Of a stretch of DNA of 64,000 nt, positions 10,048-63,174 are shown one piece after another. The stretch's first letter is position 1, and every line of letters begins with the position of its first letter. The stretch comes from an uncultured Methyloversatilis sp. (GTDB lineage: Bacteria > Pseudomonadota > Gammaproteobacteria > Burkholderiales > Rhodocyclaceae), in assembly GCA_964527195.1 (NCBI GenBank), contig CAZGOH010000001.1:9505-73504 (forward strand). The letters run 5' to 3'. The position numbers and the translations under genes are program-made. Under the pieces are notes generated by a model. That model saw nothing but the letters and a program-made list of their open reading frames with translations. It ran no database searches and was not told the origin of the DNA.

Positions 10048-10330
10048 CGGGGGGAGCCGGCGCGTCGGCCAGCCGGGGGCGCCCGTCGATCCAGAGCGTC
10101 GCCGGGCCGGCGGAGCGCTTCACATAGCCTTCGAGGCGTCCCGTAGCTTCGGGTTTCGGCGGCGACTGCCGGGGGATGGGCGTGTCGGCACGGCGTGCGC
10201 GCTCGCGTTCGGTGCGCTCTTCCGGCGTCAGGAAAAGCCGGCCGAGCGGCGGCGTCGCGTTGGCGGTCGCAGGGAAGGATGCCTGGGCGAGTCCCAGAGC
10301 GAGGCAGGCGAATCGCAACCGGGGCTTCAT
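10034..10330 (-). CDS. Exported hypothetical protein of the pilus cluster
   Basis: MKPRLRFACLALGLAQA signal peptide; LGRLFLTPEER motif. Confidence 0.7.
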   Translation of the reverse strand: MKPRLRFACLALGLAQASFPATANATPPLGRLFLTPEERTERERARRADTPIPRQSPPKPEATGRLEGYVKRSAGPATLWIDGRPRLADAPAPPESRP

Positions 10331-10896: not shown

Positions 10897-10903
10897 CGCG
10901 GTT

Positions 10904-12400
10904 TCACGGCGCCTGTTCGAGTTCGAAGGCGAAGCGCGGCGCATCGCTCGCGGCAGGCGCGGCACCGTCGGCCAGAATGGCTTCGGTCAGGTCGCCCTGG
11001 GGGGCGTCGAGCAGGCGGGCGGATAGGTCCGGCGCGGCGGCGAAGTGGGCCATGAACCCGGCAATTGCCGCCCGCTGCGCGTCGGGATCGCCGTAAAGAC
11101 GCGTCGGCAGGCGTGCCGCGACATGCATGCGCGCCGGGCCTCGGGAGGGAGCGGTGGACGGGTGTCGGGCCGGTTCGACGAGTTCCCAGTCGATCGCCTC
11201 CACGGCGATATCGGGAAAGGCGTCGAGCCCGTGGCTCAGGCGGACCAGCAGCGGTGCCGGGCCGACGGCGCGCCGCTGTGCCTCGGTGTGGCGGGCGACG
11301 AGGCGTTCCGCCGCCCCGGCGGGGAGCAAAGGCGCGTGCGGTGACGGCGATCGCTGCAGGAGACGTTCCCGTGCGGCGACGATTTCCGGCTGGATTTGCG
11401 CGAGCGCGGCGCGTTGCGCCGGCACCTCGGCGAGCAGAACACCGGAGGCGGCGAGAGCGAGCAGGAGCACACCCGCGCCGAGCGTATCGAGCGTGCGGCG
11501 CGCACGGTTGCGGCGATGGCGGGCGCGCTCGGCCGGCGACGCGAATTGCTGCGCCGGCGCCTTGAGGGCGAGCAGGCGGCAGAGCAGGGCGTCGGCATGC
11601 GGGTCGTCGCGGCGCGGCGCGAGCCCGAACTGTCGCGCCGCCGCATGGAGGTCGGCGCAGGTAAAGACCAGCGATGCGTCGTCCGGACAGAGGGCGTGCA
11701 GTGCGGGCAGCCAGTCGGGATGGGCGAGCACGCGCACCGCCAGGGGCTGTTCGCGTTCGAGCAGGCGTTGCCCGGCCAGATGCTGGCGCATGCGTACGGT
11801 TTCGGCATGCAGGGTTTCCGCCGGGTGTGCGACAGCGTCGCTTGCGGAGGGTGCCAGGCGGGAGAAGCGCAATTGGCCGCCATGGAAATAGGCCTGGCGC
11901 CAGCCGGCACGCGTCGGCAGGCAAAGCAGCAGGTGTGCGGGGCAGGCCTTGGGCAGCAGATGGTCGAGGAGTTGCGGCACGGCGTAAATCCCGGCGAGGG
12001 CGACATCGGCGGCATGCAGGGTTTCCACCCAGGGCGCGAGGGCTTGCGGGCGGGTCAGCGCCATCAGCAGCAGGCTCTCGTCGTGGCGCACGCCCGGGTG
12101 GCGCCCCCGGGAAAGCGCCAGGGCATACGGCGTGCAGCGAAAGTGCTGGGCGAGTCGGCGCCGCACGATGGCGGTACGCGCGCTGCCCCGGCTGGCGGGA
12201 ATGCTTTCCGCGCGGAAATCCTCGTCGGGGAGGTTGACCAGCAGGTCGTACGTCGCCTCCGGCTCTGTGGCGAGATGATTGGCGAAGGCCGCGAGCCCGC
12301 CGGCGTCGGCGCTGAAAGTCGGCCCCGGCGACACGGCGTCGCAGGGATCCCGGAGGCCGGTTTCGTCGGCAGACAGCAGAAGGATGCGTCGCGTTGCCAC
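10904..12400 (-). CDS. PilM-PilN / GspL-like alignment protein
   Basis: Cytoplasmic N-terminal domain (LRFSRL), central TM helix, periplasmic tail; follows the F-family gene. Confidence 0.65.
   Translation of the reverse strand: MATRRILLLSADETGLRDPCDAVSPGPTFSADAGGLAAFANHLATEPEATYDLLVNLPDEDFRAESIPASRGSARTAIVRRRLAQHFRCTPYALALSRGRHPGVRHDESLLLMALTRPQALAPWVETLHAADVALAGIYAVPQLLDHLLPKACPAHLLLCLPTRAGWRQAYFHGGQLRFSRLAPSASDAVAHPAETLHAETVRMRQHLAGQRLLEREQPLAVRVLAHPDWLPALHALCPDDASLVFTCADLHAAARQFGLAPRRDDPHADALLCRLLALKAPAQQFASPAERARHRRNRARRTLDTLGAGVLLLALAASGVLLAEVPAQRAALAQIQPEIVAARERLLQRSPSPHAPLLPAGAAERLVARHTEAQRRAVGPAPLLVRLSHGLDAFPDIAVEAIDWELVEPARHPSTAPSRGPARMHVAARLPTRLYGDPDAQRAAIAGFMAHFAAAPDLSARLLDAPQGDLTEAILADGAAPAASDAPRFAFELEQAP
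12315..12338 (+). repeat. 24-bp motif copy (antisense, AVSPGPTF)
   Basis: aaagtcggccccggcgacacggcg. Confidence 0.85.
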
Positions 12401-46922: not shown

Positions 46923-47111
46923 TCTATAATCCGCCGCCATCGCCGAGTTAATGCGCTACGCACGTAGCCGGGACAACTTGCAGGGCGATTCCCGCGCCGA
47001 ACGTCCTTCGTGAGGCGAGCGTGGAAACAAATTCTGCTAAAGCGTCGCCTGCTCCGTTTCCCCCGAGCCGGTCCGACGACCGAACAGTGGGGAGCAACAA
47101 AGGAGCGCATC

Positions 47112-48287
47112 ATGTCCAACCAATCCAACCAGTATTTCTTCACTTCGGAATCCGTTTCGGAAGGCCATCCGGACAAGGTGGCCGACCAGATCTCCGACGC
47201 GATCCTCGACGCGATCCTGTCCCAGGACCCGGCGTCGCGCGTCGCCGCCGAGACGCTGTGCAACACCGGCCTCGTCGTGCTCGCCGGCGAGATCACCACC
47301 AACGCCAACGTCGATTACATCGGCGTCGCGCGCAACACCATCAAGCGCATCGGTTACGACAACACCGAATACGGCATCGACTACAAGGGCTGCGCCGTGC
47401 TGGTCGCCTACGACAAGCAGTCGCCTGACATCGCCCAGGGCGTGAACAAGGCCTACGACAACAACCTCGACCAGGGCGCCGGCGACCAGGGCCTGATGTT
47501 CGGCTACGCCTGCGACGAGACGCATTCCCTGATGCCGCTGCCGATTTACCTGTCGCACCGTCTGATGGAGCGCCAGGCCATGCTGCGCAAAGATGGCCGC
47601 CTGCCCTGGCTGCGCCCGGACGCCAAGTCGCAGGTCACCGTGCGTTATGCCGACGGCAAACCCGACGCCATCGACACCGTCGTCATCTCGACCCAGCATG
47701 CGCCGGAGATGTCGCTGGACGTCATCCGCGAAGCCGTGATCGAGGAAATCATCAAGCCGATCCTGCCGAAGGAACTCGTCAAGGGCGAGATCAAGTATCT
47801 CGTCAATCCCACCGGCCGCTTCGTCGTGGGGGGGCCCCAGGGGGATTGCGGCCTCACCGGCCGCAAGATCATCGTCGACACCTACGGCGGCGCCTGCCCG
47901 CACGGCGGTGGCGCGTTCTCGGGCAAGGATCCGTCCAAGGTCGACCGCTCGGCGGCTTATGCGGGAAGATACGTGGCGAAGAACATCGTCGCCGCCGGGC
48001 TCGCCACGCGCTGCCAGGTGCAGGTGTCCTACGCCATTGGCGTCGCCCAGCCGACCTCGGTGTGGGTCACCACCTTCGGTACCGGCAAGGTCTCCGACGT
48101 GACCATCGCCGAACTGGTGAAGAAGCACTTCGACCTGCGTCCGAAGGGCATCGTCCAGATGCTGAACCTGCTGCGCCCGATCTACGAGAAGACCGCCGCC
48201 TACGGCCACTTCGGCCGCGACGAACCGGAATTCACCTGGGAAGCGACCGACAAGGCGCTGGCGCTGAAGGCCGACGCCGGACTGTAA
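47112..48287 (+). CDS. metK: S-adenosylmethionine synthetase
   Basis: [26 protein letters not shown]. Confidence 0.98.
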
Positions 48288-48795: not shown

Positions 48796-50889
48796 TCATC
48801 CGTTCATGCCGCCGGCCAGCCCAATACGGAAGGCGTGCAGCCGGCGCAGCAGATCTTCGTTGGCCTGTTCCAGAGACTGCCGGATCTCCTCGGCGCCGGC
48901 CACGTCATCCGTCATTGCGCAGGCAGCCAACGCCACCGCGTGCTGATGCACGCGGCGATGAATCATGTCGATTCCATGGAACTCCGTCAAGCCGCCATAA
49001 CGGCGAATGCCAACCTCGGCATACCACTGTGTGAAGCGACAACTCGCGTAGTCGGGCAGCGGCAGATCGGCGCCGCGCTGCAGGGCGACGCGGGTCTTCT
49101 CCAGCCAGTGCCGGTGGGAAACTTCCATCAGCAGCAATTCGAAATCACTGCGCATCGGGTACTTGCCGCGCGCCAGTTGCCAGCGCGGGTCGGCCTGGAA
49201 GTTTTCCACCCAGTCGGCGACCCGGTCCGCCGGCAGCGGCCGGGCGATACCGTAGCCCTGCATGACGTCGCAGCCGAGGTCGAGCAGCAGCAGAATCTGC
49301 TCGATGTTTTCCACCCCCTCGGCGACCACTTTCTGCCCGAAAGCCGATGCCAGACCGATCACGCCCTGCACAATCGCCAGATCGCCCGGATCATCGAGCA
49401 TGTCGCGCACAAAGGTCTGGTCGATCTTCAGTACATCCACCGCCAGCCGCTTGAGATGCACCAGCGAGGAATAGCCGGTGCCGAAATCGTCGAGCGCGAA
49501 ACGCATCCCGCGTTTCTGGTAAATCTCCATGATCCGCCGGACGGCGGCGACGTCCTCGAGTGCCGTCGTTTCGACCAACTCGAGTTCCAGCCGGCGCTCC
49601 AGGCCAGGCTGGTGGCGCCCGAGCATGTCCGCCAGTCCGGCATCGAAGCCGCCGTGCAGGAACTGGCGCGCCGCGACATTCACGCTGACGCCGAGATGAA
49701 TGCCTTCTTCACGCCAGACCGCCATCTGGCGAAGGGCTTCGCCGATCACCCACTCGCCGAGTCGTACGATCACGTTTTCATGCTCGATCAGCGGCAGGAA
49801 TTCTCCTGGCGAGCGCAGGCCGAGCACGGGGTGTTGCCAGCGGATGAGCGCCTCCATGCCGACGACGCGGCCGTTGCGGCAATCGACCTTCGGCTGGTAG
49901 TGCAGGACGAACTGGCCCTTGTCGAGCGCATCCTCGATGCGCTTGAGCAGCCCCTGGTTGGCACGGATGCGCGACTCGACCGCCGGGTTGAAGATGTGGT
50001 AGCGGCTTTTTCCCGCCTCCTTGGCCTTATACATGGCCTGGTCGGCGTGGCGCAGCAACTGGTCGGCGTCACCGCCGTCGCCCGGGAAAACCGTCACGCC
50101 GATGCTGCCCGTGACCCGGACCGGGTTGCCGTCGAGCACGCACGGTGCGGCGACCGCGTCGAGCAGGCGCTGCAAGGCATGCTCGGCCTGCTGCGCGGAT
50201 TTGAGACCGCCGAGCAGCACCACGAATTCGTCGCCCCCCAGGCGGGCGGCCGTATCGTCGGCGCGGATCGCGTCGATCAGGCGGGACGAGATTTCCTGGA
50301 GCAGGCGGTCGCCGATCTTGTGGCCGAGATGGTCATTGACCAGCTTGAAGCCGTCAAGATCCATCAGGCAGACGGCCAGCATGTCGCCGGTACGCCGTGC
50401 GTGCGCGGTCGCCTGCTTCATGCGGTCCGCCAGCAGCAGTCGGTTGGGCAGGCCGGTCAGCGCATCGTAGTGGGCCTGACGCTGCAAGGTGTGGGCCTGC
50501 TCGATGAGCCCGCTGACGTCGACCGTGGTGCTCAGCACGCGCCCGGGCAGATCGCCTTCGGCATCCCCGACGCGTTGGGCACGGACGCGCAACCAGCGCG
50601 GAGGTGTCGTGGCAAGACGCACCAATCGCTCGTCGCTGGCGCAGTCGCCCGCCAGAACGCGCGCGACGGGGAGGCTCGCCGGATCGAGCGGCAGCCCTTC
50701 CGCATCGAGGCAGTGCGTCGCCAGCGCTTCGTGGCCGGCAAGCTCTCCGGCAGGGATGCCAAACTGGGCTTCCGTCGCCGGATTGCAGTACAGCCGCCGC
50801 CCCGCGCCGTCCCAGAACTGGATGCCGACGTCGATGGCGTCGGCCGAAGGTGCCGGGCAATCCGGGTTGGTTTCTATAACTTCCGTCAT
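48796..50889 (-). CDS. PAS-like/GGDEF/EAL/CZB c-di-GMP enzyme
   Basis: RADD I-site with GGDEF; EALIRW; DDFGTGYSSL; C-terminal HRHW...CRFTQW...HRRVH. Confidence 0.9.
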   Translation of the reverse strand: MTEVIETNPDCPAPSADAIDVGIQFWDGAGRRLYCNPATEAQFGIPAGELAGHEALATHCLDAEGLPLDPASLPVARVLAGDCASDERLVRLATTPPRWLRVRAQRVGDAEGDLPGRVLSTTVDVSGLIEQAHTLQRQAHYDALTGLPNRLLLADRMKQATAHARRTGDMLAVCLMDLDGFKLVNDHLGHKIGDRLLQEISSRLIDAIRADDTAARLGGDEFVVLLGGLKSAQQAEHALQRLLDAVAAPCVLDGNPVRVTGSIGVTVFPGDGGDADQLLRHADQAMYKAKEAGKSRYHIFNPAVESRIRANQGLLKRIEDALDKGQFVLHYQPKVDCRNGRVVGMEALIRWQHPVLGLRSPGEFLPLIEHENVIVRLGEWVIGEALRQMAVWREEGIHLGVSVNVAARQFLHGGFDAGLADMLGRHQPGLERRLELELVETTALEDVAAVRRIMEIYQKRGMRFALDDFGTGYSSLVHLKRLAVDVLKIDQTFVRDMLDDPGDLAIVQGVIGLASAFGQKVVAEGVENIEQILLLLDLGCDVMQGYGIARPLPADRVADWVENFQADPRWQLARGKYPMRSDFELLLMEVSHRHWLEKTRVALQRGADLPLPDYASCRFTQWYAEVGIRRYGGLTEFHGIDMIHRRVHQHAVALAACAMTDDVAGAEEIRQSLEQANEDLLRRLHAFRIGLAGGMNG

Positions 50890-50959
50890 ACGCGCATTAT
50901 ATGCCGGAGCAATCGATGTTGTTTCGGTCGTGCCGTTTCGGGCCGCGTATAATGCCGGC

Positions 50960-51027
50960 AACCGAGGAGCGCTGCGAGGTTCCATGTTTTGTGGCCCCAG
51001 GCTCGGTTTGTGTCAACGGCGCTCACC
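50960..51027 (+). ncRNA. SAH riboswitch upstream of ahcY
   Basis: CCGAGGAGCGCTGC...CCAGGCTCGG...AACGGCGCTC consensus; TATAAT at 50948-50953. Confidence 0.9.
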
Positions 51028-51100
51028 CAGCCCGCACCGGGCAGGGTGAGCCTGTCAGAAAGGCGCCTCCTCCCGGTCACACGTTCAAGGAGCCTGAACC

Positions 51101-52501
<1,401 letters not shown>

Positions 52502-52518
52502 CACTTCATCCTCCATGG

Positions 52519-52553
52519 CTCCATAATGAATCCATTACGGATTCATTGTGGAG
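52519..52553. promoter_or_regulatory. 15-bp inverted repeat covering the TA -10 and RBS (operator/hairpin)
   Basis: ctccataatgaatcc-attac-ggattcattgtggag, one mismatch. Confidence 0.7.
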
Positions 52554-52559
52554 GCAATC

Positions 52560-52907
52560 ATGCCCAATCTCTCGATCAAGGATGTGCCTGAAACGCTGGC
52601 CGAGGCCCTGCGCCAGCGTGCCGCGCGCAACCATCGCTCCTTGCAGGGCGAGTTGATGGCGCTGCTGGAGGCAGCGGTGCAAACGCCGATGGCGGCGCCT
52701 GGCGTGCGCGAGCCGGCCGTTCCCCCTTACATCGCCGCTCCCTTGCCCGCCGCCGCCGGCCAGGACGATCTGCTCGCCAGGCTGGATGCCATCGTCGCCG
52801 GCAGCCAATGGGGCAGCGCGCCCCTGCTGTCGCGCGAACAGATCCATGATCGCCGGCTGCTGCGCGAGCTGGAACATGACGTACGCCAGACAGAGAGCAC
52901 GCATTGA
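52560..52907 (+). CDS. Arc/FitA-like ribbon-helix-helix antitoxin
   Basis: MPNLSIKDVP...RAARNHRSLQGEL. Confidence 0.85.
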   Translation: MPNLSIKDVPETLAEALRQRAARNHRSLQGELMALLEAAVQTPMAAPGVREPAVPPYIAAPLPAAAGQDDLLARLDAIVAGSQWGSAPLLSREQIHDRRLLRELEHDVRQTESTH

Positions 52908-53332
52908 GCCTTCCCGCGTACTTTCTCGACAGCAACGTGCTGATCTACGCGACCTCGCTGGCGGCCGATCATGCGCAGAAGAAGCCGCGCGCCCGGGCGT
53001 GGGTGGCGCGCACCGACTGGGGAATCTCCACCCAGGTGCTGATGGAGTTTTACGCCCAGGCGCGCCAGCCCAGGCATGGCCTGCTCCCCACGGCGGCGGA
53101 AGACTTTGTGCGTGAGTTGGTCGCCACCCGTCCGGTACAGCCGGTGGATGCCGCGCTCGTGCTCGAAGCCCTGCGCCTGCGTAACCGCTACTACCTGTCG
53201 CACTGGGATGCTGCCATCCTCGTCGCGGCGCGCCTGCTCGGCGCCCGTTACGTCATCAGCGAAGACATGGCCCACGGCGAAAGCTACGACGGCGTGACGG
53301 TCATCAACCCCTTTCTGGAGCTACCCGCATGA
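52904..53332 (+). CDS. PIN-domain toxin
   Basis: FLDSNVLIYA, STQVLMEF, SHWDAAI, SEDM. Confidence 0.9.
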   Translation: MSLPAYFLDSNVLIYATSLAADHAQKKPRARAWVARTDWGISTQVLMEFYAQARQPRHGLLPTAAEDFVRELVATRPVQPVDAALVLEALRLRNRYYLSHWDAAILVAARLLGARYVISEDMAHGESYDGVTVINPFLELPA

Positions 53333-56300
53333 GCGCCCGCGACAAATTTCTCGCCCTGTTGAGAGATGAAATCCTCCAGATGGACTTGTCCGAACTGGAC
53401 TTCGGCCTCTACCGCATTCTCAACTACAAGCGCGAGGAAGTCGCCCGTTTTCTCGATAACGAACTGCCCGCCGAAATCGCCCGCCGGCTGGCCGCTCTGC
53501 CCGGCGCTCCCGGCGAAGACGAAGAAGCGCGCATCTACAACGCCCTCACCGTTTTTTTCTCGCGCTATTTCGTCGAGGCCGACTTCATGCCGCGCGCACG
53601 GCGCGGCAAACACGCCGCCTACAGCGTGCCCTACCGCGGCGAGGACACCCATTTCCACTGGGCCAGCAAAGGCAGCCACTACATCAAGAGCGGCGAACGC
53701 TTCGCCGCCTACGCCTATGTCGAGCCGGCCGGCCGGCGCGTGCGCTTCGTTGTCGCCGCTGCCGATGTGCAAAAAGACAACGCCAAGGGCGACAAGCGGC
53801 TGTACGTTCCCGCCGACGGCAGCGAAGTCGATGGCGAATGGCGCATCGCCTTTGCCTGGCGTCCCCTCGACAAGGACGAAAACAAGCGTTACGGCGGCAA
53901 GTCCAAAGACGGCGCGGCGGAGGGCGACGAAGCCGACGCCGGGGGCGACGCCAACGATGCCGGCACGGGCGCCCCGGCGGCCGCCGGCCGCGACACGCAA
54001 ACGCGCCTGCTCAACGCCTGGCTGGCCGGCGACGACTTCAAGGCCGCGCGCCTGCCCAAGGACATCGACCGCGACCTGCTCGCCAAACACGCGCATCGCT
54101 ACGTCAAGGGCCAAAGTAGCGACTTCTTCGTGCACCCGAGGCTGGCCGAGTTTCTGGAGGGCGAACTCGACTACTACCTCAAGAACGAATTCGTCAATCT
54201 CTGGGACCTGCCCGACGGCGCGGCGCTCTTGCGCGAACGCGAGAAATGCAAAGTCGTCGGCCATCTCGCCCGCGCCATCATCCGCCTGCTCGCCGCCGTC
54301 GAAGACGTGCAGGCCATCCTCTTCGAAAAGCGCAAATTCGTCCTCGCCGCCCACTACCTGGCCCAGGCCTCCTGGCTGTTGCGCGAAGGCGGCGCAGCGG
54401 GCCGGGCGTTGGTGGGCGAAGCGGCGCAAAACACGGCCCAAGTCGCCGAATGGCGGCGCTGGGTCGGCGACGACAAAGCCTCTGGCGATAACCTGCTCGA
54501 ACGCCACCCCCACCTGCCGATCAACACCGCGCACTTCGACGATGACTTTCAATGGCGCCTGCTCGCCTGCTTCCCCGACCTCACCGCCGCCCTCGGCGGC
54601 ACGCTGATCCACGGCGACAACTACGCCGCCCTGCGGACGCTGGAACCGGCTTACAAGCAGGGGGTGAAGTGCATCCATATTGATCCGCCCTACAACACGG
54701 CGACGAGCGGCTTTTTCTACAAGAACGATCTCCCGCATGCCTCATGGTTAAGCATGATGTTTGGCCGTTTAGGGTGCTCGAAGATGCTGCTCTCAGCTCA
54801 GGGAAATTTTCTTTGCCATATTGACGAGCACGAATACGAGCGGCTGCATGTTCTGTGTGCAGAGATGGATTTGGCAGACGCAGGTACGATCATCTGGGAC
54901 AAGAGAAACCCGATGACGGGAGGTGCAGGAGTCGCGACTCAACACGAGTACATCCTTTGGCGGACAACGGAAGAATGCAAGCTTTATCAAAGCAACCAGA
55001 ATATCCAGGCAATATTGGACAAGGCGGCTGAAGTGCTTGCCAAGCATGGTGGCGATAGCAATGCGGCACAGAGTGAGTTTTCTGCGTGGATAGACGCTGG
55101 TGAAAGCTTGAGCGGCGGCGAAAAAGCCTACCGATACCTTGACGCGAAGGGCCGGGTGTATCAATCCGTCAGCCTGCGTGCACCGGAATATCGGCACGAG
55201 GAAAAATTCCGTCAGCCCTTGATCCATCCAGTCACGGGCAAACCGTGTCCCGTGCCGCCCAACGGTTTTTCCAGGACACCGGAAAATCTTGCCGAAATGA
55301 TGTCGCCCCGACGTGACGAAATTCTTTTCGGCCCCGACGAGACAACGCAGCCAAGGCAAAAACTCATCTTGAAACCGTCCACACGGCGGCCCGTTACTTC
55401 CGTGCTGCAAGACGCCAAGAAAGGCAAGGCCAATCTGGACGCATTGGGTTTGACATTTCCTTACTGCCACCCTGTTTCCTTGTACGAGAACCTGACGGGA
55501 TCGGCGATGGAGTCGAATGACTACTGCCTCGACTTCTTCGCCGGTTCCGGCACCACCGGCCATGCCGTCATCAACCTGAACCGCGAGGATGGCGGGCAGC
55601 GGAAATTCATCCTCGTCGAACAGGGCGAGTATTTCGACACCGTGACCCTGCCGCGCATCGCCAAGGTGATGACCTGCCCGGACTGGAAGGATGGCCGGCC
55701 CAAAGTCGGCGCTGGCGGGACGGCGGCAGACGAGGCGCCCGATCACTGGTCGCGCCGCACTCTGCCGCTGGTGCAGGTGTTGCGCCTGGAACGCTACGAG
55801 GACAGCCTGGACGCGCTCGAACTGCCCGCCGACCGCACCGCCCGGCTGGCGGGACAAAGCGGTTTCGCCGCGCTCGACACGGTGCTGCATTACCTGAGCG
55901 ACGCCGTGGCCGAGGACACCACCTTGCGCCTGTCCACCGCGAAACTGACTCGCCCCTTCGACTACCGCCTGCCGGTCACCCACGAAGGCCGCTACGGCGA
56001 AGCGACGGTCGATCTGGTGCACACCGGCTTTTTGCTCGCCGGCCTGCATCCGCTGCGCCTGCGCCGGGTAGAACGCGACGGCCGCCCGACGGTGCTGGCG
56101 GAAGTGCGCCCGCACGGCGCGCCGGAGCGCATCGAACTGGTGTTCTGGCGCGACGTGGATGAAAGTCTGGCGCCGGAGGCCTTGAGCGCAGCGGCGCAAG
56201 CCGAATATGACTGGCTGGCGGCAACGGTGCGCGAAGTTTTCGACCGCCCGTTGGCCGACTATGCCTGCATCTGGCACAACCGCGATTTGCTGCTGCTGGG

Positions 56301-56361
56301 CGGCGAAGCCGGCCGCCCGCTCGATCTCGTGCTGGCCGAACGGATGTGGGAACGCGCCTGA
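53329..56361 (+). CDS. Type III-like R-M DNA methyltransferase (Mod)
   Basis: IHGDN, HIDPPY (motif IV), DFFAGSGTT (motif I), beta-class motif order; ATGA-coupled to the PIN gene. Confidence 0.9.
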   Translation: MSARDKFLALLRDEILQMDLSELDFGLYRILNYKREEVARFLDNELPAEIARRLAALPGAPGEDEEARIYNALTVFFSRYFVEADFMPRARRGKHAAYSVPYRGEDTHFHWASKGSHYIKSGERFAAYAYVEPAGRRVRFVVAAADVQKDNAKGDKRLYVPADGSEVDGEWRIAFAWRPLDKDENKRYGGKSKDGAAEGDEADAGGDANDAGTGAPAAAGRDTQTRLLNAWLAGDDFKAARLPKDIDRDLLAKHAHRYVKGQSSDFFVHPRLAEFLEGELDYYLKNEFVNLWDLPDGAALLREREKCKVVGHLARAIIRLLAAVEDVQAILFEKRKFVLAAHYLAQASWLLREGGAAGRALVGEAAQNTAQVAEWRRWVGDDKASGDNLLERHPHLPINTAHFDDDFQWRLLACFPDLTAALGGTLIHGDNYAALRTLEPAYKQGVKCIHIDPPYNTATSGFFYKNDLPHASWLSMMFGRLGCSKMLLSAQGNFLCHIDEHEYERLHVLCAEMDLADAGTIIWDKRNPMTGGAGVATQHEYILWRTTEECKLYQSNQNIQAILDKAAEVLAKHGGDSNAAQSEFSAWIDAGESLSGGEKAYRYLDAKGRVYQSVSLRAPEYRHEEKFRQPLIHPVTGKPCPVPPNGFSRTPENLAEMMSPRRDEILFGPDETTQPRQKLILKPSTRRPVTSVLQDAKKGKANLDALGLTFPYCHPVSLYENLTGSAMESNDYCLDFFAGSGTTGHAVINLNREDGGQRKFILVEQGEYFDTVTLPRIAKVMTCPDWKDGRPKVGAGGTAADEAPDHWSRRTLPLVQVLRLERYEDSLDALELPADRTARLAGQSGFAALDTVLHYLSDAVAEDTTLRLSTAKLTRPFDYRLPVTHEGRYGEATVDLVHTGFLLAGLHPLRLRRVERDGRPTVLAEVRPHGAPERIELVFWRDVDESLAPEALSAAAQAEYDWLAATVREVFDRPLADYACIWHNRDLLLLGGEAGRPLDLVLAERMWERA
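55702..55725 (+). repeat. 24-bp motif copy (mod, KVGAGGTA)
   Basis: aaagtcggcgctggcgggacggcg. Confidence 0.9.
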
Positions 56362-59300
56362 TGCCCCCCCGCCCCGACCGTCCTTTCGTCAAAAGCCTGC
56401 TGCTGGCGCAGGTGTTCGCTCGCGCGCTGGGCGGGCGGCAGGACGAGATCATGGCCGTGCTGGCGGATTGCCAGACCGGGCGCGACGGCGCCGGCCTGAG
56501 CTATTTCGCCCAGGCGCTGGCGGCGCGGCCGCGGCCGCTGCCCGCCGCCGATCTGGCCGCCTGGGATGCCGCCATCGGCCGCCACGAGGCGGCCATCGCC
56601 GCGTGCCGTCCGGGCTTTCGCCTCACCCACTTTCAATGGCTGGCCTGCCTGGCGGTCGAATGGCATCTGGCCGGCCTCGCCCGCGCTGCGGCGGCCCACG
56701 TCGCGGCCATCGAGGCGTATCGCACCGAAGCCCTGCCGCATCTGCCGCCCTATACGGCGGCAGATGCCGGCAAGCTCGCCTGCTTCATGGCCACCGGCGC
56801 CGGCAAGACGCTGGTGCTGCATGTCAATCTGCTGCAATTCCTGGATCACGGCTTGTTCGCGCCGCAGAACATTCTGCTGCTGACGCCCAATGCCGCCTTG
56901 TCCGATCAGCATCGCCGCGAACTCGACCTGTCCGGCCTGGGCCATCTGCCGGTCACGGTGACGGAGATCACCAAGTTCTTTGTCGATGAACCCGGTGTGC
57001 GCCGGCCGAAAAAGGGCGTGTCCGAAGGCACTTCGCGCTACGAAGGGCCGAATCTGCTGCTGGTGGACGAGGGCCACAAGGGCGGGAGCGCCGAGGCCGG
57101 CACCGAACGCCAATGGCGCGCCATCCGCGAGGCGCTGGCGCAAGGCGGCACGGCGGACAAGACCGGCTTCGCCTTCGAGTATTCGGCCACCTTCGCGCAA
57201 ATCGCCGACAAGGATGCCGACCTCTACCGCGAATACGCGAAGTGCACAGCGGTGGATTTTGGCTACGCGCGCTTTTACCGCGAGGGCTACGGCAAGGAGC
57301 CGCGCGTACTCAACGCCCGCGATGCCGAGGGCGCAGATCAAACCCTGGCGGCGGGACTGATTCACTTCTACCAGCAACGTCGGGCTTACGCCGATCATCG
57401 CTTGCTGGCGGTCGAGGCGCAGGTCGAGGCGCCCTTGCTGGCCTGCGTCGGCAAGGAAGTGACGACCGGGCGCCAGGCCGACGTGGTGGAACTGGTGCGC
57501 TTTCTGGTGCGCGCCGCCATTGACACCGACTGGCTGGCCAAACACCTGGCCGCCGTGGCGCACTGGACGCGCCCGGCCCAGTCGGAACTGGCAGGCGATC
57601 CGCTCGACTTCGGCTATCTGGCCGGGCTGAATCTCTCGCCCGACGCGCTGGCGCGCGACATGCAGGAACGGATTTTCGGCGGCACGGGACAGATCGAGGC
57701 GCGACTGCTGTCCGACAAGGAAATCGGCCTGCGCTGCCGGGGCGCGGCGGACGATGCCTATTTCGGCGTGATTCGCGTTGGTGAAGCGAAAAAGCTGCTC
57801 GCCCTGCTCGACCAGACCGGGGTGGCGCGCGGCGAACCGGATCGTTTGAGCGGTTCGCTGTTCGCGCGCATCGACGATGACGCCCGTTTGAGCATTTTGA
57901 TCGGCGCCAAGATGTTCGTCGAAGGCTGGTCGTCCTGGCGCGTCTCCGCTCTTGCGCTGATGAACGTGGGCCGCTCGCCCGGCGCCGAGATCATCCAGTT
58001 GTTCGGTCGCGGGGTGCGCCTCAAGGGCAGGAACTGGTCGTTGAAGCGCGAAGCGCATCCAGGTGCGGCGGTCGGCTTGCTGCAGACGCTGATGGTCTTC
58101 GGCGTGCGCGCCGACTACATGCAGAAGTATCTGGAAACGCTGGCCGTGGAAGGCGCGCGGCCGAACTTGCTGTATGTCGAGGTCGCGCCGCCGGCGCCCC
58201 CGCTGGCCGACCTGGGCCTCTTCACGCTGCAGCCGGACGCAGCGATTTTCCGCGCGCCGGTGGTGTTCGACCCGACGCGGGCGCGGCCGATCATCGAGCG
58301 CATCGCGCCGCTGGCTTCGCTCTCGCAGGGGCTGGCGGGCGCGCAAACGCTGGGCGGGCGCCTGACGCGCACCGACAACCTGCGCGGCTGGCTGGCCGAC
58401 GAAGCCGCCTACCGGCTGGCGCTGGGCCTCAAGCGGCGTTATCGCTGGGCCGGCCTGTTCGTCGCGCCGGAGGCGCTGGCCGCCTATCTCGCACGCTGCG
58501 CGGTCGAAGCGCCGGCGGATTATTTCGATGACCCGGCCTTCTGCGCCGCGCGCCGCGCCCAGGTCGCCGCGGTCTGCATCGAAAAGGGCTTGGTGGCCTG
58601 CCTGCGCGCCGCCGAACAACGCTGGCGCATGGCCCGGCTGGCGCCGACCCCGCTCGACGACGACAACGCCGGCCTGCCCTGGGCCTACGAGGGCACGACC
58701 CGCCGCTTGCGCTACCGGCTGGAAGTGGATGTGGAAAACGCCGCCGTCGCTGACATGATCGATCTGGCCGAACGTCATGTGCGCGAGGAGATTTTTCCGC
58801 CCGCCTATCTGGCCGAATTGCAGGCGCTGGTGTTGCGTCATGCCGGCATGAGCGCACTGGCCGGCCGACTGGAAAAGATGCTGCAAACCGCCCTGCCGCC
58901 GGGCGACGACCTGGCGCCCCCGCTGCCGCGGCTGGTGTTCGACCGCCATCTCTACCAGCCGCTGCTGCTGGCGCAACCGATGGTCGTCGAAGCCTCCGGC
59001 CAACTCGCGCTGTTCGGCCCTGACGACAAGCCGCCGCGCGGCTTGCGCATCTCCCCGCCGGCGCTCAACGCAGGCGAGGCGCGTTTCGCCTGGGATTTGC
59101 GCGCCTTCTGGGAGCGTCATCACGACACGCCCGGCTGGCGCGACATTTCCCTCTATCTGCTGCGCAATCCGGCGGCGGGGGGCGTGAGCTTGTTCCGCGC
59201 CGCCGGCTTTGCGCCCGACTTTCTGCTCTGGCTCAAGCGCGCCGATGCGCAGGTGCTGGCCTTCGTCGACCCCAAGGGGCTGGGCCGCGTCTGGCCGGAC

Positions 59301-59519
59301 GACAAGATCGAGATGCTCAAGGCGCTGGATTCGCTGGCCTTGTCGCTGCCGGTGCGCGGCTATCTGGTCACGCCCTCCGATCGCGCATCGCTGGCTCTGC
59401 CGCCCGGCATCGCGTCCGACGACGCCAGCCTGGCGTTCGAGCATGTTTATGTTCAGGAAAACGACTATATCGACCGCCTGCTGCATGCCATCGTTGCGGC
59501 TTTGGAGACGCCGCGATGA
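56361..59519 (+). CDS. Type III-like restriction subunit (SF2 helicase plus PD-(D/E)xK nuclease)
   Basis: MATGAGKT, DEGH, QLFGRGVR, C-terminal PDF...DPKG. Confidence 0.88.
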   Translation: MPPRPDRPFVKSLLLAQVFARALGGRQDEIMAVLADCQTGRDGAGLSYFAQALAARPRPLPAADLAAWDAAIGRHEAAIAACRPGFRLTHFQWLACLAVEWHLAGLARAAAAHVAAIEAYRTEALPHLPPYTAADAGKLACFMATGAGKTLVLHVNLLQFLDHGLFAPQNILLLTPNAALSDQHRRELDLSGLGHLPVTVTEITKFFVDEPGVRRPKKGVSEGTSRYEGPNLLLVDEGHKGGSAEAGTERQWRAIREALAQGGTADKTGFAFEYSATFAQIADKDADLYREYAKCTAVDFGYARFYREGYGKEPRVLNARDAEGADQTLAAGLIHFYQQRRAYADHRLLAVEAQVEAPLLACVGKEVTTGRQADVVELVRFLVRAAIDTDWLAKHLAAVAHWTRPAQSELAGDPLDFGYLAGLNLSPDALARDMQERIFGGTGQIEARLLSDKEIGLRCRGAADDAYFGVIRVGEAKKLLALLDQTGVARGEPDRLSGSLFARIDDDARLSILIGAKMFVEGWSSWRVSALALMNVGRSPGAEIIQLFGRGVRLKGRNWSLKREAHPGAAVGLLQTLMVFGVRADYMQKYLETLAVEGARPNLLYVEVAPPAPPLADLGLFTLQPDAAIFRAPVVFDPTRARPIIERIAPLASLSQGLAGAQTLGGRLTRTDNLRGWLADEAAYRLALGLKRRYRWAGLFVAPEALAAYLARCAVEAPADYFDDPAFCAARRAQVAAVCIEKGLVACLRAAEQRWRMARLAPTPLDDDNAGLPWAYEGTTRRLRYRLEVDVENAAVADMIDLAERHVREEIFPPAYLAELQALVLRHAGMSALAGRLEKMLQTALPPGDDLAPPLPRLVFDRHLYQPLLLAQPMVVEASGQLALFGPDDKPPRGLRISPPALNAGEARFAWDLRAFWERHHDTPGWRDISLYLLRNPAAGGVSLFRAAGFAPDFLLWLKRADAQVLAFVDPKGLGRVWPDDKIEMLKALDSLALSLPVRGYLVTPSDRASLALPPGIASDDASLAFEHVYVQENDYIDRLLHAIVAALETPR

Positions 59520-60343
59520 GCATGAACGCGTTTCATGCGCGCACCGCACGGCCGCGGCCGAAGGCGCATCCGCTGCGGCAGGCCGCCGCCGCACCCTTGG
59601 GCGTTCGTGCCGATGCCCTGCTCGTCCAGCAGGGGCGCGCGCCCTCGCGCACGGCGGCGCAGCGGCTCATCGAGGCCGGCCGCGTGAAAGTCGGTCCTGG
59701 CGGGACGGCGGTGACGAAGCCGTCGCTGCTCTTGGCCGAAGATGCCGAACTAATCGTCGCGCCCGCGCCCGACCTCGACTACGTTTCGCGCGGCGGCCTC
59801 AAGCTGGCCGGGGCCTTGCGGCACACGGGCATCGACGTGCAGGGTTGTGACTGCCTCGACATCGGCCAATCGACCGGCGGCTTCACCGACTGCCTGCTGA
59901 AAAACGGCGCCGCCAAGGTCGTTGGCATCGATGTCGGCCACGGCCAGCTGCACCCGACGCTCGCGGCCGATCCGCGCGTCGAGTCGCACGAACAGGTCAA
60001 TGCCCGGCACCTCGAAAAGTCGGCGCTGGCGGGACGGCAATTTGATTTCATCACGGCCGATGTGAGCTTCATCTCCCTCACGCTGATCCTGCCGCAACTG
60101 CCACCGCTGCTGACCAAGCTTGGCGACCTGCTTTTGCTGGTCAAGCCGCAATTCGAAGTCGGCCCCGAGCACATCGGCAAGGGCGGCATCGTGACTGACC
60201 ATTGCTTGTATCCCATGGTGCACGACAAGCTCACGGCCTGCTGCACCGAACACCACTTCGTCGTCGCCGACTGGTTCGAAAGTCCCATTACCGGCAGCGA
60301 CGGCAACCATGAATTCTTTCTTCACGCCCGCCATGACCACTGA
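59516..60343 (+). CDS. tlyA: TlyA-family RNA methyltransferase
   Basis: S4-like RADALLV, YVSRGGLKL, DIGQSTGGFTD, KPQFE. Confidence 0.92.
   Translation: MSMNAFHARTARPRPKAHPLRQAAAAPLGVRADALLVQQGRAPSRTAAQRLIEAGRVKVGPGGTAVTKPSLLLAEDAELIVAPAPDLDYVSRGGLKLAGALRHTGIDVQGCDCLDIGQSTGGFTDCLLKNGAAKVVGIDVGHGQLHPTLAADPRVESHEQVNARHLEKSALAGRQFDFITADVSFISLTLILPQLPPLLTKLGDLLLLVKPQFEVGPEHIGKGGIVTDHCLYPMVHDKLTACCTEHHFVVADWFESPITGSDGNHEFFLHARHDH
59687..59710 (+). repeat. 24-bp motif copy (tlyA, KVGPGGTA)
   Basis: aaagtcggtcctggcgggacggcg. Confidence 0.9.
60016..60039 (+). repeat. 24-bp motif copy (tlyA, KSALAGRQ)
   Basis: aaagtcggcgctggcgggacggca. Confidence 0.9.
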
Positions 60344-61163
60344 AATCTCTTTCGAATTTTTTCCCCCGCAATCGACCGACGGCCTCGACAAACTGCGTGC
60401 CGTGCGCGGCCGCCTCGCCGAGGCGCAGCCGACTTTCTTCTCCGTGACCTACGGCGCCGGCGGCTCGACGCGTGAGCGCACCTTTGACGTGGTGATGGAA
60501 ATCGCCGCCGAAGGCCATGCCGCCGCGCCGCACTTGTCGTGCATCGGTTCGACGCGGGAAGGCATTCGCCGAATCCTCCACGACTATCGCGACCACGGCA
60601 TCCGCCGTCTCGTCGCCTTGCGCGGCGACCTGCCTTCCGGCATGGCCGATGCCGGCGAGTTTCGCTACGCCAACGAACTAGTCGAATTTATCCGCCAGGA
60701 AACCGGCGACACCTTCCGCATCGAAGTCGCCGCCTACCCGGAATGGCACCCACAGGCGAAAAGCCCGCGCGACGATCTGCGCGCGTTCAAACGCAAGGTC
60801 GATGCCGGCGCCGATTCGGCGATCACGCAGTTCTTCTACAACGCCGATGCCTACGCCCACTTTGTCGCCGAAGCACGTGCGCTCGGCGTCACCATCCCGA
60901 TCGTGCCGGGCATCATGCCAATTGGCAGTTTCTCGAAGCTCGCCCGTTTTGCGGACTCCAGCGGTGCCGAAATTCCGCGCTGGATGCGCAAGAAGTTCGA
61001 GAGCTTTGGCGACGATGCCGATTCGATCCGCGCCTTCGGCCTCGATGTCGTCACCGAGCTGTGCGAGCGCCTGATCGCGCTCGGCGCGCCCGGGCTGCAC
61101 TTCTACACGCTCAACCAGTCGACGCTGTCGCTGGAGATCGTGCGCCGCCTTCGTCTCGTCTGA
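60333..61163 (+). CDS. metF: 5,10-methylenetetrahydrofolate reductase
   Basis: SFEFFPP, SVTYGAGG, LRGDLP, ITQFF, HFYTLN. Confidence 0.97.
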   Translation: MTTEISFEFFPPQSTDGLDKLRAVRGRLAEAQPTFFSVTYGAGGSTRERTFDVVMEIAAEGHAAAPHLSCIGSTREGIRRILHDYRDHGIRRLVALRGDLPSGMADAGEFRYANELVEFIRQETGDTFRIEVAAYPEWHPQAKSPRDDLRAFKRKVDAGADSAITQFFYNADAYAHFVAEARALGVTIPIVPGIMPIGSFSKLARFADSSGAEIPRWMRKKFESFGDDADSIRAFGLDVVTELCERLIALGAPGLHFYTLNQSTLSLEIVRRLRLV

Positions 61164-61180
61164 GACGCGCGACGCCGTCC

Positions 61181-61204
61181 AAAGTCGGCCCCGGCGGGAC
61201 GGCG
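61181..61204 (+). repeat. 24-bp motif copy (intergenic, after metF)
   Basis: aaagtcggccccggcgggacggcg. Confidence 0.9.
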
Positions 61205-61206
61205 AC

Positions 61207-63174
61207 TCAGAACTTGTAGCGGAGTTCCGCCCAGGCGTGGCGGCGCGGCAGGGGCAGGTAGTCGGGGATGTCGGTCGTGGAGTACTCCCGTGCATCCTGG
61301 TCGAACAGGTTGCGCACCCCGGCGGCGAGTTCCCATTCGCTCCCGTGGAAATAGCGCAAGGTCGTGTCGACGATCCACTGGCTCCCGAGTCCGGTGCGTG
61401 TGTCCGTGCTGGCTCGTTGCCGGCGCTCGCCTGTCCAGTTGGCCTGCAGGTTCCAGTTCCATTTCGGCCGAAAGGCCCAGTCGGCACGCAGGTAGGCGTC
61501 GTGATCGGGAATGGCGAAGTGATCGACGACCTTCAGGTGCTGGAAGTGCTCGCGGTCGGTCTTGCGCAGGGTCAGGTTGCCATTCAGACGCAGGTGCGGC
61601 GTGGCTTGCCAGTAGGCTTCAAGTTCGATGCCGCGAATCACATGAGGGTCGACATTGACGAACTTTTGCGGAAAGGGATCGATGGCGACGATGGGGTTTT
61701 TCTGGTGATGCCGGAACAGGCTGACGTCGAACTTGAGCCCCGGCGTTGCCCTCCAGGAGAAAGCCAATTCGGCGGTGGTCGATTTTTCGGGCTCAAGGTC
61801 GGGGTTCGGTGTGGTTGCGCCGGTATTGGCATAAAGTTCGAAGAACGAGGGCACCCGGTAGGCCCGCCCCAGCATTACCCGGGTTGTCAGCCGCTCGGTC
61901 GATTTCCAGACGGCGGCGAGGCGCGGACTGAGCGCCCCGGCGAACTCGCTGTAGCGGTCATAGCGCGCACCGAGGGTGATTTCCCGGCGCGGATCGATCT
62001 CCCATACGTCCTGGGCGAACAGGTAGATGTTGCGGCGGCTTTTTTGCGGGACGAAAACGCTCGTCACGCCGTTTTCGACCTTGCTGTCGCGGTAGATGTC
62101 CTGCCAGACGTAGCCGCCCCCCACCCGCACGGTGTGATTGCGCCAGCCACGGTAGATGCCGCCGATTTCGGCGTTGATGCGCTGTTCGGCGGAGCGCTGC
62201 TGGTTGAGCAGGGTCGGGGTTTCCCAAAAACCGTTGCCGGAAGAGTAGGCGGCGGCACGGTAGCGTACTTCGGCATCCAGGCCCCAGGCGTCCGAATAGG
62301 TTGCGTTGTTGTAGAGCCAGGCCAGGCTGCTTTCGCTTTCTCTGGCACGTGTCCGGTCGTCGAAATAGCGCCCGCCCGTCAGGCCAATGCGCAGATTGTC
62401 CCGGGTGCGGTGATCCGCCAGGATGCGCCAGTGATCGCGGCTGGCCGACAGGCGCAGGTCGAGGTTGTCATGGCCATAATCGGCGCGCTCCGTGCGGACG
62501 TAGGGCACCGATGGCTTGTTCACCCGAATTTCCGGATGGTGGCCATCCGTCGTCATGACGTCGAGCGTCATGCCGATGGCGAGGTCGTTCCATTGCGTTC
62601 CGTACTGTAGCCAGGCATTGCGAGTGTCGAAACCGCCCACGCGGACGCCGGCTTCGGCGGTATCGATTTTGCCGGCCGTCTTGGTGACGATATTGATGAC
62701 GCCAGAGACTGCATCCGATCCATACAGCGCCGAACCCGGGCCGCGAATGATCTCGATGCGTTCGACCATGCTGACCGGCAGGCCGCGCCAGAAGATGCCG
62801 GTTCCCCAGACCAGTTCGCGCACCGGCGCACCGTTGAGCATCATCAGCGTGTACTTTGGCGCGGCACCACGTATCGACACAAGCGGCTTGTGCGCAAAGT
62901 GGTTCAGGCGCAGATAAATGCCCGGCACCGCCTGCAAGGCATCGAGCACATTGCCGGCGCCGGTGGCGTGCATATCCGCCGCCGTGATCACCGAAACCAC
63001 GGCGGGCGCCTTCGAGAGGGCTTGCGGCGTACTGGTGGCGATGTTCACCGTCATCGACATCAGCGCATCGAGGTCGGCGGCCAGCAGCATTTCCGTGTCG
63101 TCGGCGCCGGCCGTGGCGCAGGGCAGGGCACACCAGAGCAGCGCAAGCAGGAATCGTCGCCACGCGTCCTTCAT
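61207..63174 (-). CDS. TonB-dependent receptor (plug plus barrel)
   Basis: Signal peptide, IERIEIIRGPGSALYG-like plug motif (VERIEIIRGPGSALYG), NPDLEPE, RNLFD, C-terminal Phe. Confidence 0.92.
   Translation of the reverse strand: MKDAWRRFLLALLWCALPCATAGADDTEMLLAADLDALMSMTVNIATSTPQALSKAPAVVSVITAADMHATGAGNVLDALQAVPGIYLRLNHFAHKPLVSIRGAAPKYTLMMLNGAPVRELVWGTGIFWRGLPVSMVERIEIIRGPGSALYGSDAVSGVINIVTKTAGKIDTAEAGVRVGGFDTRNAWLQYGTQWNDLAIGMTLDVMTTDGHHPEIRVNKPSVPYVRTERADYGHDNLDLRLSASRDHWRILADHRTRDNLRIGLTGGRYFDDRTRARESESSLAWLYNNATYSDAWGLDAEVRYRAAAYSSGNGFWETPTLLNQQRSAEQRINAEIGGIYRGWRNHTVRVGGGYVWQDIYRDSKVENGVTSVFVPQKSRRNIYLFAQDVWEIDPRREITLGARYDRYSEFAGALSPRLAAVWKSTERLTTRVMLGRAYRVPSFFELYANTGATTPNPDLEPEKSTTAELAFSWRATPGLKFDVSLFRHHQKNPIVAIDPFPQKFVNVDPHVIRGIELEAYWQATPHLRLNGNLTLRKTDREHFQHLKVVDHFAIPDHDAYLRADWAFRPKWNWNLQANWTGERRQRASTDTRTGLGSQWIVDTTLRYFHGSEWELAAGVRNLFDQDAREYSTTDIPDYLPLPRRHAWAELRYKF

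Follow-up and report, generated by a model that had tools for sequence, protein, structure and literature searches.

This report concerns a four-gene cassette, comprising a toxin-antitoxin (TA) pair and a type III-like restriction-modification (R-M) system, that is located inside an S-adenosylhomocysteine (SAH) riboswitch operon of an uncultured Methyloversatilis sp. The DNA analyzed was a stretch of 64,000 nucleotides (assembly GCA_964527195.1, contig CAZGOH010000001.1, positions 9,505 to 73,504 of the forward strand), hereafter called the window; coordinates refer to it unless they follow the number of a locus from another assembly (L001, L082, etc.). On the + strand, the order of elements is SAH riboswitch, ahcY, a ribbon-helix-helix (RHH) antitoxin gene, a PIN-domain toxin gene, the genes for Mod and Res, tlyA, and metF. 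As judged from the related loci described below, the cassette is an old, monophyletic resident of the ahcY-metF operon in two betaproteobacterial orders and is not peculiar to this genome.

Gene content and junctions

All of the genes of the operon are encoded on the + strand, as is the riboswitch aptamer (50958-51031), which was matched by Rfam family RF01057 with 57.6 bits (gathering score, 37). The aptamer ends 70 nt before the ATG of ahcY (51101-52501), the gene for S-adenosylhomocysteine hydrolase (Pfam AdoHcyase, 1.6e-146). The cassette begins with an RHH antitoxin of 115 residues (52560-52907; Pfam PF22513, FitA-like_RHH, 1.4e-12) and a PIN-domain toxin of 142 residues (52904-53332; Pfam PF01850, 1.5e-11). 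These are followed by Mod, a type III-like N6-adenine DNA methyltransferase of 1010 residues (53329-56361; Pfam N6_N4_Mtase, 2e-27), and Res, a protein of 1052 residues with a superfamily 2 (SF2) helicase and a C-terminal nuclease motif (56361-59519; PADLOC REase_III). Downstream are a tlyA-like gene for an rRNA 2'-O-methyltransferase (59516-60343; Pfam FtsJ, 2.5e-42, and S4; TIGR00478, 7.5e-56) and metF, encoding methylenetetrahydrofolate reductase (60333-61163; Pfam MTHFR, 4.2e-89; TIGR00676, 5.2e-97). The two end genes, ahcY and metF, are on the same strand and 7.8 kb apart, with an internal promoter-like site between them and overlaps at every junction from RHH to metF.

The junctions were read directly from the sequence. 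The RHH and PIN genes overlap by 4 bp (TTGA), the start codon of PIN being TTG and not ATG. An ATGA overlap joins PIN to Mod, and a second one joins Res to tlyA. Between Mod and Res, the junction is TGATG, a 1-bp overlap if Res is started at ATG 56361; an alternative start at GTG 56346 would give a protein of 1057 residues. The overlap of tlyA with metF is 11 bp from ATG 60333, and the homologues of metF align from that start. A sequence-only reading made earlier had proposed this gene set and all of these overlapping junctions, and both were borne out. It had also remarked on the lack of an integrase or transposase, and none was found among the larger open reading frames (ORFs) tested between 44.8 and 64 kb of the window.

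Properties of the cassette proteins

Mod was matched by the PADLOC profile MTase_III (PDLC03646) at 4.3e-173 and by phmmer to the Mod subunit of EcoP15I (4zcf_A) at 2.4e-37. The structure model of Mod had a mean predicted local distance difference test score (pLDDT) of 74; using Foldseek, its best match was again EcoP15I Mod (4zcf_B, 5e-21 over 623 columns, covering the whole target), followed by the Mods of H. pylori and Mbo45V. The Pfam N6_N4_Mtase match is split over residues 446-768, and the motif order (IHIDPPYNT, a variable region, DFFAGSGTTG) is that of a beta-class N6/N4 enzyme. There are two conserved extra regions, one N-terminal of ca. 420 residues and one C-terminal of ca. 240 residues. 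The variable target-recognition region (54748-55524, + strand) is low in G+C, with a third-codon-position G+C content (GC3) of 0.65 v. 0.83 in the remainder of Mod.

Res was matched by the PADLOC profile REase_III (PDLC03654) at 1.2e-75. In Pfam, its DEAD and ResIII matches are weak (ResIII, 22.4 bits, just below the 22.5 cut-off). The SF2 motifs ATGAGKT, DEGH, and QLFGRGVR are present, as is a C-terminal nuclease motif, PD (952-953)...DPK (970-972). The columns ATGxGKT, DEGH, SATF, QxFGRGxR, and PD...DPK were invariant or nearly so in two alignments (A1 and A2), one of which held 47 homologues. A search of the PDB with the single Res sequence gave no match, and a 19-sequence profile found weak helicase matches only. 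A model of Res calculated from an alignment of database homologues had a mean pLDDT of 80 and a predicted template-modeling score (pTM) of 0.58. EcoP15I Res was absent from the top 50 Foldseek matches of this model, all of which were generic SF2 proteins (RIG-I, HsdR of EcoR124I, ZorD, RadD).

The type III-like label that the sequence-only reading had given to both proteins is thus secure for Mod, given the sequence and fold matches to EcoP15I Mod and the PADLOC assignment. For Res, it is provisional, being drawn from the PADLOC profile and the motifs. PADLOC, which that reading had named as a check, filed the two proteins as MTase_III and REase_III, respectively. The Mod-Res pairing was kept in every relative with a sufficiently long contig.

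In the toxin, acidic residues D9, E48, D102, E120, and D121 are kept in at least 120 of 122 aligned relatives. Neither RHH nor PIN was matched by a PADLOC family at E <= 0.01, and no meaningful NCBIfam family was found for them. From their conserved motifs, Mod, Res, and PIN look intact and active.

Several irregularities were seen in the Mod and Res genes of relatives. At L148:9441, and at the same position in L152, one base pair is missing from a GCCCCCG tract in the linker of Mod, which causes a frameshift, and a product of 805 residues is called. The two assemblies derive from different samples, and Res is intact in both; the frameshift could represent decay, a split Mod, or phase variation. 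In L085 (8410-8576), ca. 170-200 bp with a hairpin like that of a repetitive extragenic palindrome, GGTGGGCTTCAACCCACC, are inserted between Mod and Res at the site of the TGATG overlap. In L082 (13051-13542), an ORF with a Bro-N domain follows the Mod stop where the N-terminus of Res would be expected; the contig goes no further, and the ORF may be part of a Bro-N-Res fusion or of a replaced Res.

Promoter, terminator, and riboswitch signals

Promoters and terminators were sought by consensus scanning of positions 50700-61500. A single promoter-like site was found on the + strand, TTGACA-N18-CATAAT at 52498-52527, which conforms to 11 of 12 consensus positions; the stop codon of ahcY falls within its -35 hexamer. 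There was no such site directly before tlyA or metF. An inverted repeat (52516-52556), the putative RHH operator, consists of two 18-nt arms (52516-52533 and 52539-52556) that are 89% complementary and 5 nt apart; it spans the -10 hexamer and ends just 5' of the RHH start. The layout of promoter-like site and operator is conserved in 10 aligned loci, including one (L146) that lies outside the operon. Promoter and palindrome are laid out as would be expected for a self-repressed type II TA promoter.

Five terminator-like hairpins, all weak, were found in the scanned region, compared to 9.0 +/- 3.3 in shuffled sequences. The statement of the sequence-only reading that no obvious terminator precedes metF therefore holds. 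That reading had taken independent promoters or terminators between the genes as evidence against a single transcription unit: terminators are lacking, but a conserved TA promoter-like site does separate ahcY from the cassette. Because this site and its putative operator are independent and conserved, control is probably dual and not exerted by the riboswitch alone.

A TATAAT hexamer (50948-50953) lies 5' of the aptamer. No U-tract terminator was found in the riboswitch expression platform, and the minimum-free-energy fold of the leader (z = -1.6) revealed no clear expression platform. Seven related loci were tested for an SAH riboswitch 5' of ahcY, and all had one. With the TA promoter lost from L085, the sole + strand promoter-like site in 10 kb of that locus is just 5' of the riboswitch; this position and the lack of terminators fit co-transcription. 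The R-M genes of L085 would be driven from the riboswitch promoter.

Recurrence of the cassette

Homologues of Mod, Res, and PIN were looked up in public assemblies. Seven lineages besides the window were found to have Mod-Res between ahcY and either tlyA or metF; these comprise Rhodocyclales-like organisms and Rubrivivax-type Burkholderiales. The most fragmentary is L081, in which Mod-Res occupies a short contig that also holds the 3' end of PIN and the 5' end of tlyA (87.6% nucleotide identity). L082 reads metK-ahcY-RHH-PIN-Mod and then runs off its contig end, and L083/84 reads holin-RHH-PIN-Mod-Res-tlyA-metF. The TA pair is missing from L085-87 (ahcY-Mod-Res-tlyA-metF). In the Rubrivivax-type loci, Res is followed by metF: ahcY-RHH-PIN-Mod-Res-metF in L139/140, with an additional ORF between PIN and Mod in L138 (Rubrivivax sp.; 104 residues) and L148-152 (114 residues). 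Res identity among the embedded lineages is 56-88%, and Mod identity falls to ca. 50%. The stop codon of Res overlaps the next start by ATGA in all six lineages in which this could be checked (the window, L083, L085, L138, L139, and L149), both where tlyA comes next (Rhodocyclales type) and where metF does (Rubrivivax type). The recurrence of gene order and of this overlap in independent assemblies indicates that the arrangement is more than chance, and the presence of R-M genes at the same site in seven other lineages indicates an old, inherited arrangement instead of a one-off insertion.

The sequence-only reading had made its case depend on TA and R-M genes occurring together elsewhere. They do so inside the operon in L082, L083/84, L138, L139, and L148-152, and outside it in L146. 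The two parts are separable, as demonstrated by TA-only forms (L019, L141, and L143) and by the R-M-only form (L085). The TA-only arrangement ahcY-RHH-PIN-tlyA-metF is found in L141/142 and L143-145. Alignment of L141 and L143 to the window covers 50945-53334 and resumes at 59510, so that the gap is exactly Mod-Res, and PIN overlaps tlyA by ATGA in both. For L141, identity to the window is 84% over riboswitch-ahcY-RHH-PIN and 82% over tlyA-metF, and the 6.2 kb from 53335 to 59509 are missing. In L085, ca. 60 nt of the PIN 3' end are kept in front of Mod, from which it follows that the TA pair was deleted there.

The hexanucleotide ATGAGC is found at both ends of Mod-Res, and there are no long flanking repeats. 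Whether it marks a microhomology-mediated deletion or insertion was considered, but it was retained only as consistent with such an event, since the ATGA overlaps dictate four of its six bases.

The ORFs between PIN and Mod in Rubrivivax-type loci (L138:9690-10004 and L149:8443-8787; 104-114 residues) are 55% identical to each other and have no Pfam match; neither the window nor L139 has such an ORF. Homology between the small ORFs that precede Mod in Thermomonas and those of the Rubrivivax-type loci was considered and rejected.

The operon in close relatives

The ordinary state of the operon was examined in the 80 species-representative genomes with the closest AhcY proteins (86-95% identity), mostly Rhodocyclaceae, Thiobacillus, Zoogloea, Azonexus, and Dechloromonas. 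In 56 of the 80, metF is on the same strand as ahcY and 31-2500 bp from it, compared to 7.8 kb in the window. The genes ahcY-tlyA-metF are contiguous in 13 species, and ahcY-metF without tlyA in 42 more; a 115-residue membrane protein of family PF04020 is encoded between ahcY and metF in many of them. The synteny check named by the sequence-only reading was thereby answered: ahcY-(tlyA)-metF is contiguous in relatives, and the cassette interrupts the operon. Mod-Res was found in none of these 80 representatives, and RHH-PIN alone was found in one, Zoogloea L019. Overlaps of the ATGA type also occur in operons free of the cassette (between holin and tlyA in L001, L003, and L004). L083 and L001 are close (MetF, 89%), yet the cassette is present in L083 only.

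The published SAH-riboswitch regulon is built around ahcY and metF, to which PF04020 and COG1189 are added in particular taxa (Leyn et al. 2014, PMC4239095). The ahcY-(PF04020/tlyA)-metF layout of many relatives agrees with this description (PMC4239095), in which no TA or R-M genes appear.

Other insertions were noted between the same genes, with labels assigned by reading the translations. Azoarcus taiwanensis (L028:11464-12992) has a GNAT-like ORF of 219 residues and a nitrilase-like ORF of 290 residues, and Chitinimonas (L064:11502-12056) has a GNAT-like ORF of 184 residues. In two Rhodocyclaceae (L010:11422-11715 and L018:11501-11803), the only ORF between ahcY and metF has 97-100 residues and corresponds to TlyA residues 1-84, the part with the S4 region; it looks like a tlyA relic.

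Origin and exchange

In the Res tree, the embedded proteins form one clade (200/200 bootstraps), within which the tlyA-linked (199/200) and Rubrivivax-type (200/200) proteins form subclades. The sister of the embedded clade (200/200) is L146, where RHH-PIN-Mod-Res lies between genes for a cation ATPase and a MerR protein and has the same promoter/operator layout; its PIN belongs to a different subfamily from that of the window. GC3 of the cassette genes is 0.77-0.84, like that of host genes, the variable region of Mod excepted, which argues for long residence. According to the tree, the RHH-PIN-Mod-Res module evidently entered the ahcY-metF operon once and then diversified there. It is patchily retained and decays to TA-only or R-M-only forms.

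None of 50 metagenomic loci with distant Mod-Res pairs (32-55% best-segment identity) had them beside ahcY or metF, and neither did the relatives in L153 (Thermomonas haemolytica), L155 (an IncF plasmid), or viral contigs. The partners 5' of Mod in distant loci were an XRE-type helix-turn-helix (HTH) protein (L104 and L109), HTH_17 with PIN (L105), or an SNF2 helicase. A hidden Markov model of the window PIN subfamily, applied to all ORFs of the distant Mod-Res loci, found nothing beyond known loci.

The window TA pair is a mosaic. Residues 1-37 of RHH are identical to those of L082; this identity covers the DNA-binding half of the antitoxin and recurs in the last 15 residues of PIN. Most of PIN, together with the C-terminal, toxin-binding half of the antitoxin, is instead of the L019/L141 type (75-87% identity v. 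49% to L082); this block has been exchanged between lineages. In Mod, the variable region cannot be aligned to that of L082, although the flanks are 91-94% identical. A comparable exchange is seen between the near-identical loci L148 and L149 (ca. 10160-10990); outside the exchanged region, the alleles concerned in these exchanges are 91-98% identical. Such swapping of target recognition is typical of R-M systems under diversifying selection. Taken with the differences between loci described above (L141, L085, and L083 v. L001), these patterns show that relatives have recombined, to which the strong conservation of the flanks contributes (ahcY is 86-96% identical to its relatives), and that either the TA pair or the R-M genes may persist alone.

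Two distant branches were noted in addition. In Thermomonas haemolytica (GCA_006352395.1; L153:6556-13201), Mod-Res directly follows recN, Res is 46% identical, and an ORF of 135 residues without a known family overlaps Mod. The source is a cultured isolate and could serve as a laboratory model for the enzyme family; no cultured carrier turned up among the embedded loci. In L155 (E. coli plasmid pEC316_2, NZ_CP018955.1), as in L101-L103 and L111, an HTH regulator and an SNF2-related helicase of 945-990 residues precede Mod. The Mod branch of the L155 type (ca. 31% identity over the alignable parts) is found on IncF plasmids of Escherichia, Klebsiella, and Citrobacter.

Comparison with known systems

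The window genes resemble type III R-M systems (EcoP15I and EcoP1I; also the Mods of Mbo45V and H. pylori) in that mod is co-oriented with res, lies directly 5' of it, and overlaps it. Mod is a beta-class N6_N4 enzyme (DPPY, target-recognition region, FxGxG) for which EcoP15I Mod is the best sequence and fold match, Res combines an SF2 ATPase with a C-terminal PD-(D/E)xK motif, and PADLOC files both proteins as type III. Mod is, however, larger (1010 v. 644 residues), no specific similarity of Res to EcoP15I Res was detected, and the module is led by an RHH-PIN pair and lies inside a riboswitch operon.

As in FitAB/VapBC pairs, the RHH antitoxin gene overlaps the PIN gene by 4 bp, the acidic residues are conserved, and a palindrome overlaps the promoter-like site; in contrast to them, the pair heads a four-gene module, and the toxin stop overlaps the Mod start. 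R-M systems regulated by C proteins have a small DNA-binding protein directly 5' and co-oriented, with its own self-regulated promoter, a layout to which the RHH gene and its putatively self-regulated promoter correspond; kin of the window Mod-Res carry an XRE-type HTH (L104 and L109) or HTH_17 with PIN (L105) at that place. In place of an HTH C protein, the window has an RHH antitoxin that is paired with a nuclease toxin. In PrrC-EcoprrI, too, the gene of an RNA-targeting toxin is physically joined to an R-M operon, a likeness that suggests back-up killing if restriction should fail. The window PIN is nevertheless unrelated to the PrrC anticodon nuclease, has no PADLOC match, and has an antitoxin of its own; moreover, the TA-only and R-M-only derivatives show parts of the window type to be separable.

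With the SAH-riboswitch ahcY-metF operon (PMC4239095), the window shares the riboswitch 5' of ahcY and a metF gene that is probably part of the same operon, with PF04020 and COG1189 (TlyA-like) genes in relatives; it departs from it in having 7 kb of defence genes between ahcY and tlyA-metF. A full-text literature search found no paper combining an SAH riboswitch or the ahcY-metF operon with TA or R-M genes. Each component is of a known kind; what is new, within the literature searched, is the conserved placement of RHH-PIN and a type III-like R-M system inside the SAH-riboswitch ahcY-metF operon in two orders.

Interpretation

The observations are best accounted for by an old four-gene defence/addiction cassette with dual transcription, in which tlyA and metF depend on transcription through the cassette; a probability of about 0.7 was assigned to this overall picture. 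From the anatomy of the operon, transcripts would arise from read-through of the riboswitch-gated ahcY promoter and also from the cassette's own sigma-70-type promoter, which RHH-PIN would repress at the palindrome over the -10 hexamer. Since there is no terminator and each stop overlaps the next start, transcription and translation would continue through tlyA and metF, neither of which has a promoter-like site of its own. By analogy with their families, Mod would use S-adenosylmethionine (SAM) to methylate an asymmetric site, Res would cut unmethylated incoming DNA, and the TA pair would supply a regulated promoter, addiction, and possibly abortive infection. The position was most likely kept as a safe, constantly transcribed site between indispensable and highly conserved genes; that the enzyme needs the riboswitch is a less likely reason.

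Some considerations weigh against this picture. Co-transcription, repression by RHH-PIN, and the dependence of tlyA-metF are read from consensus scans and gene overlaps only. The riboswitch may act solely on the translation of ahcY, in which case it would hardly affect the downstream genes. As Res has no specific match in sequence or fold to the one solved type III Res, the type III label rests on Mod and the PADLOC profiles. Because the R-M genes are found in none of the 80 closest species, vertical descent would have to be accompanied by many losses; an equally possible course is that relatives passed the cassette on by recombination in the conserved flanks, and the mosaic TA pair points that way.

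The cassette's absence from the 80 closest species representatives, together with the occurrence of the broader Mod family on plasmids and in viral contigs, would also fit a recent, one-off insertion of a mobile TA/R-M island in this genome's operon. That explanation is effectively excluded, however, because it is contradicted by the related loci: seven other lineages have the same site and junctions, with Res identities of 56-88% and a monophyletic tree. GC3 is host-like, and neither an integrase or transposase nor long flanking repeats accompany the cassette, only the 6-bp ATGAGC. It is also improbable that Mod-Res has been domesticated and now serves the host in epigenetics or repair, in connection with the methyl cycle, while Res has lost its activity or gained another use. 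In keeping with such a role are the long stay of the cassette among housekeeping genes, the lack of specific similarity between Res and the solved type III Res, and the frameshifted Mod beside an intact Res in some strains, but the helicase and PD-DxK motifs show no variation among 47 Res homologues, and the target-recognition region is being swapped (L148 v. L149; the window v. L082).

Two further proposals are refinements of the old-cassette picture and are compatible with each other. It is conceivable, though on balance doubtful, that embedding acts as a form of addiction: an imprecise deletion or polar inactivation would cut off the promoter-less metF and cause methionine shortage, so that only exact excisions would survive. 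The overlap of the Res stop with the downstream start in six checkable embedded lineages, for tlyA and metF alike, speaks for it, as do the lack of an internal promoter-like site before either gene and the exact, in-register removal of the R-M genes in L141/L143, where PIN overlaps tlyA by ATGA. Yet ATGA overlaps are normal in the cassette-free operon (holin/tlyA in L001, L003, and L004), L085 tolerates the hairpin insert of ca. 170-200 bp between Mod and Res, Mod is frameshifted in L148 and L152, and a second copy of metF or another promoter is possible beyond one window.

The other refinement, which we regard as unlikely, is metabolic coupling, whereby SAH-responsive transcription would benefit an R-M enzyme that uses SAM and is inhibited by SAH, and would keep the cassette in the operon. 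Product inhibition of methyltransferases by SAH is established biochemistry and is a point in its favor. On a rise in SAH, the riboswitch would raise both AhcY, which removes the inhibitor, and Mod; host DNA would stay methylated, and Res would spare the chromosome. The link with the operon has been held across two orders with Mod identities down to ca. 50%, the riboswitch is retained in all tested loci, and the R-M genes of L085 apparently have the riboswitch promoter only. On the other hand, the systems of L146, Thermomonas L153, plasmid L155, and 50 metagenomic relatives manage without an ahcY context; most embedded loci have their own TA promoter; Res would be induced together with Mod; and the riboswitch leader has no U-tract terminator and an uninformative fold. 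The methyl-cycle link may be functional or just historical. The fuller claim, that the riboswitch/ahcY-metF context makes the R-M/TA module responsive to methylation potential while coupling to metF protects it against loss, is likewise held to be improbable. If true, it would mean that a housekeeping operon that senses a metabolite has a defence system wired into it.

The usual description of defence systems is of cargo that is carried on mobile islands and regulated on its own. By contrast, the TA and R-M module considered here is a long-term resident of a riboswitch-controlled core metabolic operon in two bacterial orders, its frames spliced to those of housekeeping genes. This raises the questions of whether an SAH riboswitch can set the level of a restriction system, whether embedding in an essential operon acts as an anti-loss device, and whether a TA pair can serve as the controller of an R-M system. 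Natural genotypes for comparison exist, with the TA pair only, the R-M genes only, both, or neither.

Surroundings of the operon

The operon is flanked in the window by metK, a GGDEF-EAL gene, a gene for a TonB-dependent receptor, which is convergent with metF, and a GGDEF gene. The SAM synthetase gene metK (47010-48287, + strand; Pfam S-AdoMet_synt N, M, and C) is given as its longest ORF, and the true start is probably later. Between metK and the riboswitch is a PAS-GGDEF-EAL-CZB gene on the - strand (48796-50985). In L082 and L141, metK is directly 5' of riboswitch-ahcY, and L082 has the synteny DegT-metK-ahcY. Because metK adjoins riboswitch-ahcY in these two loci, the GGDEF-EAL gene of the window looks like a second, separate insertion.

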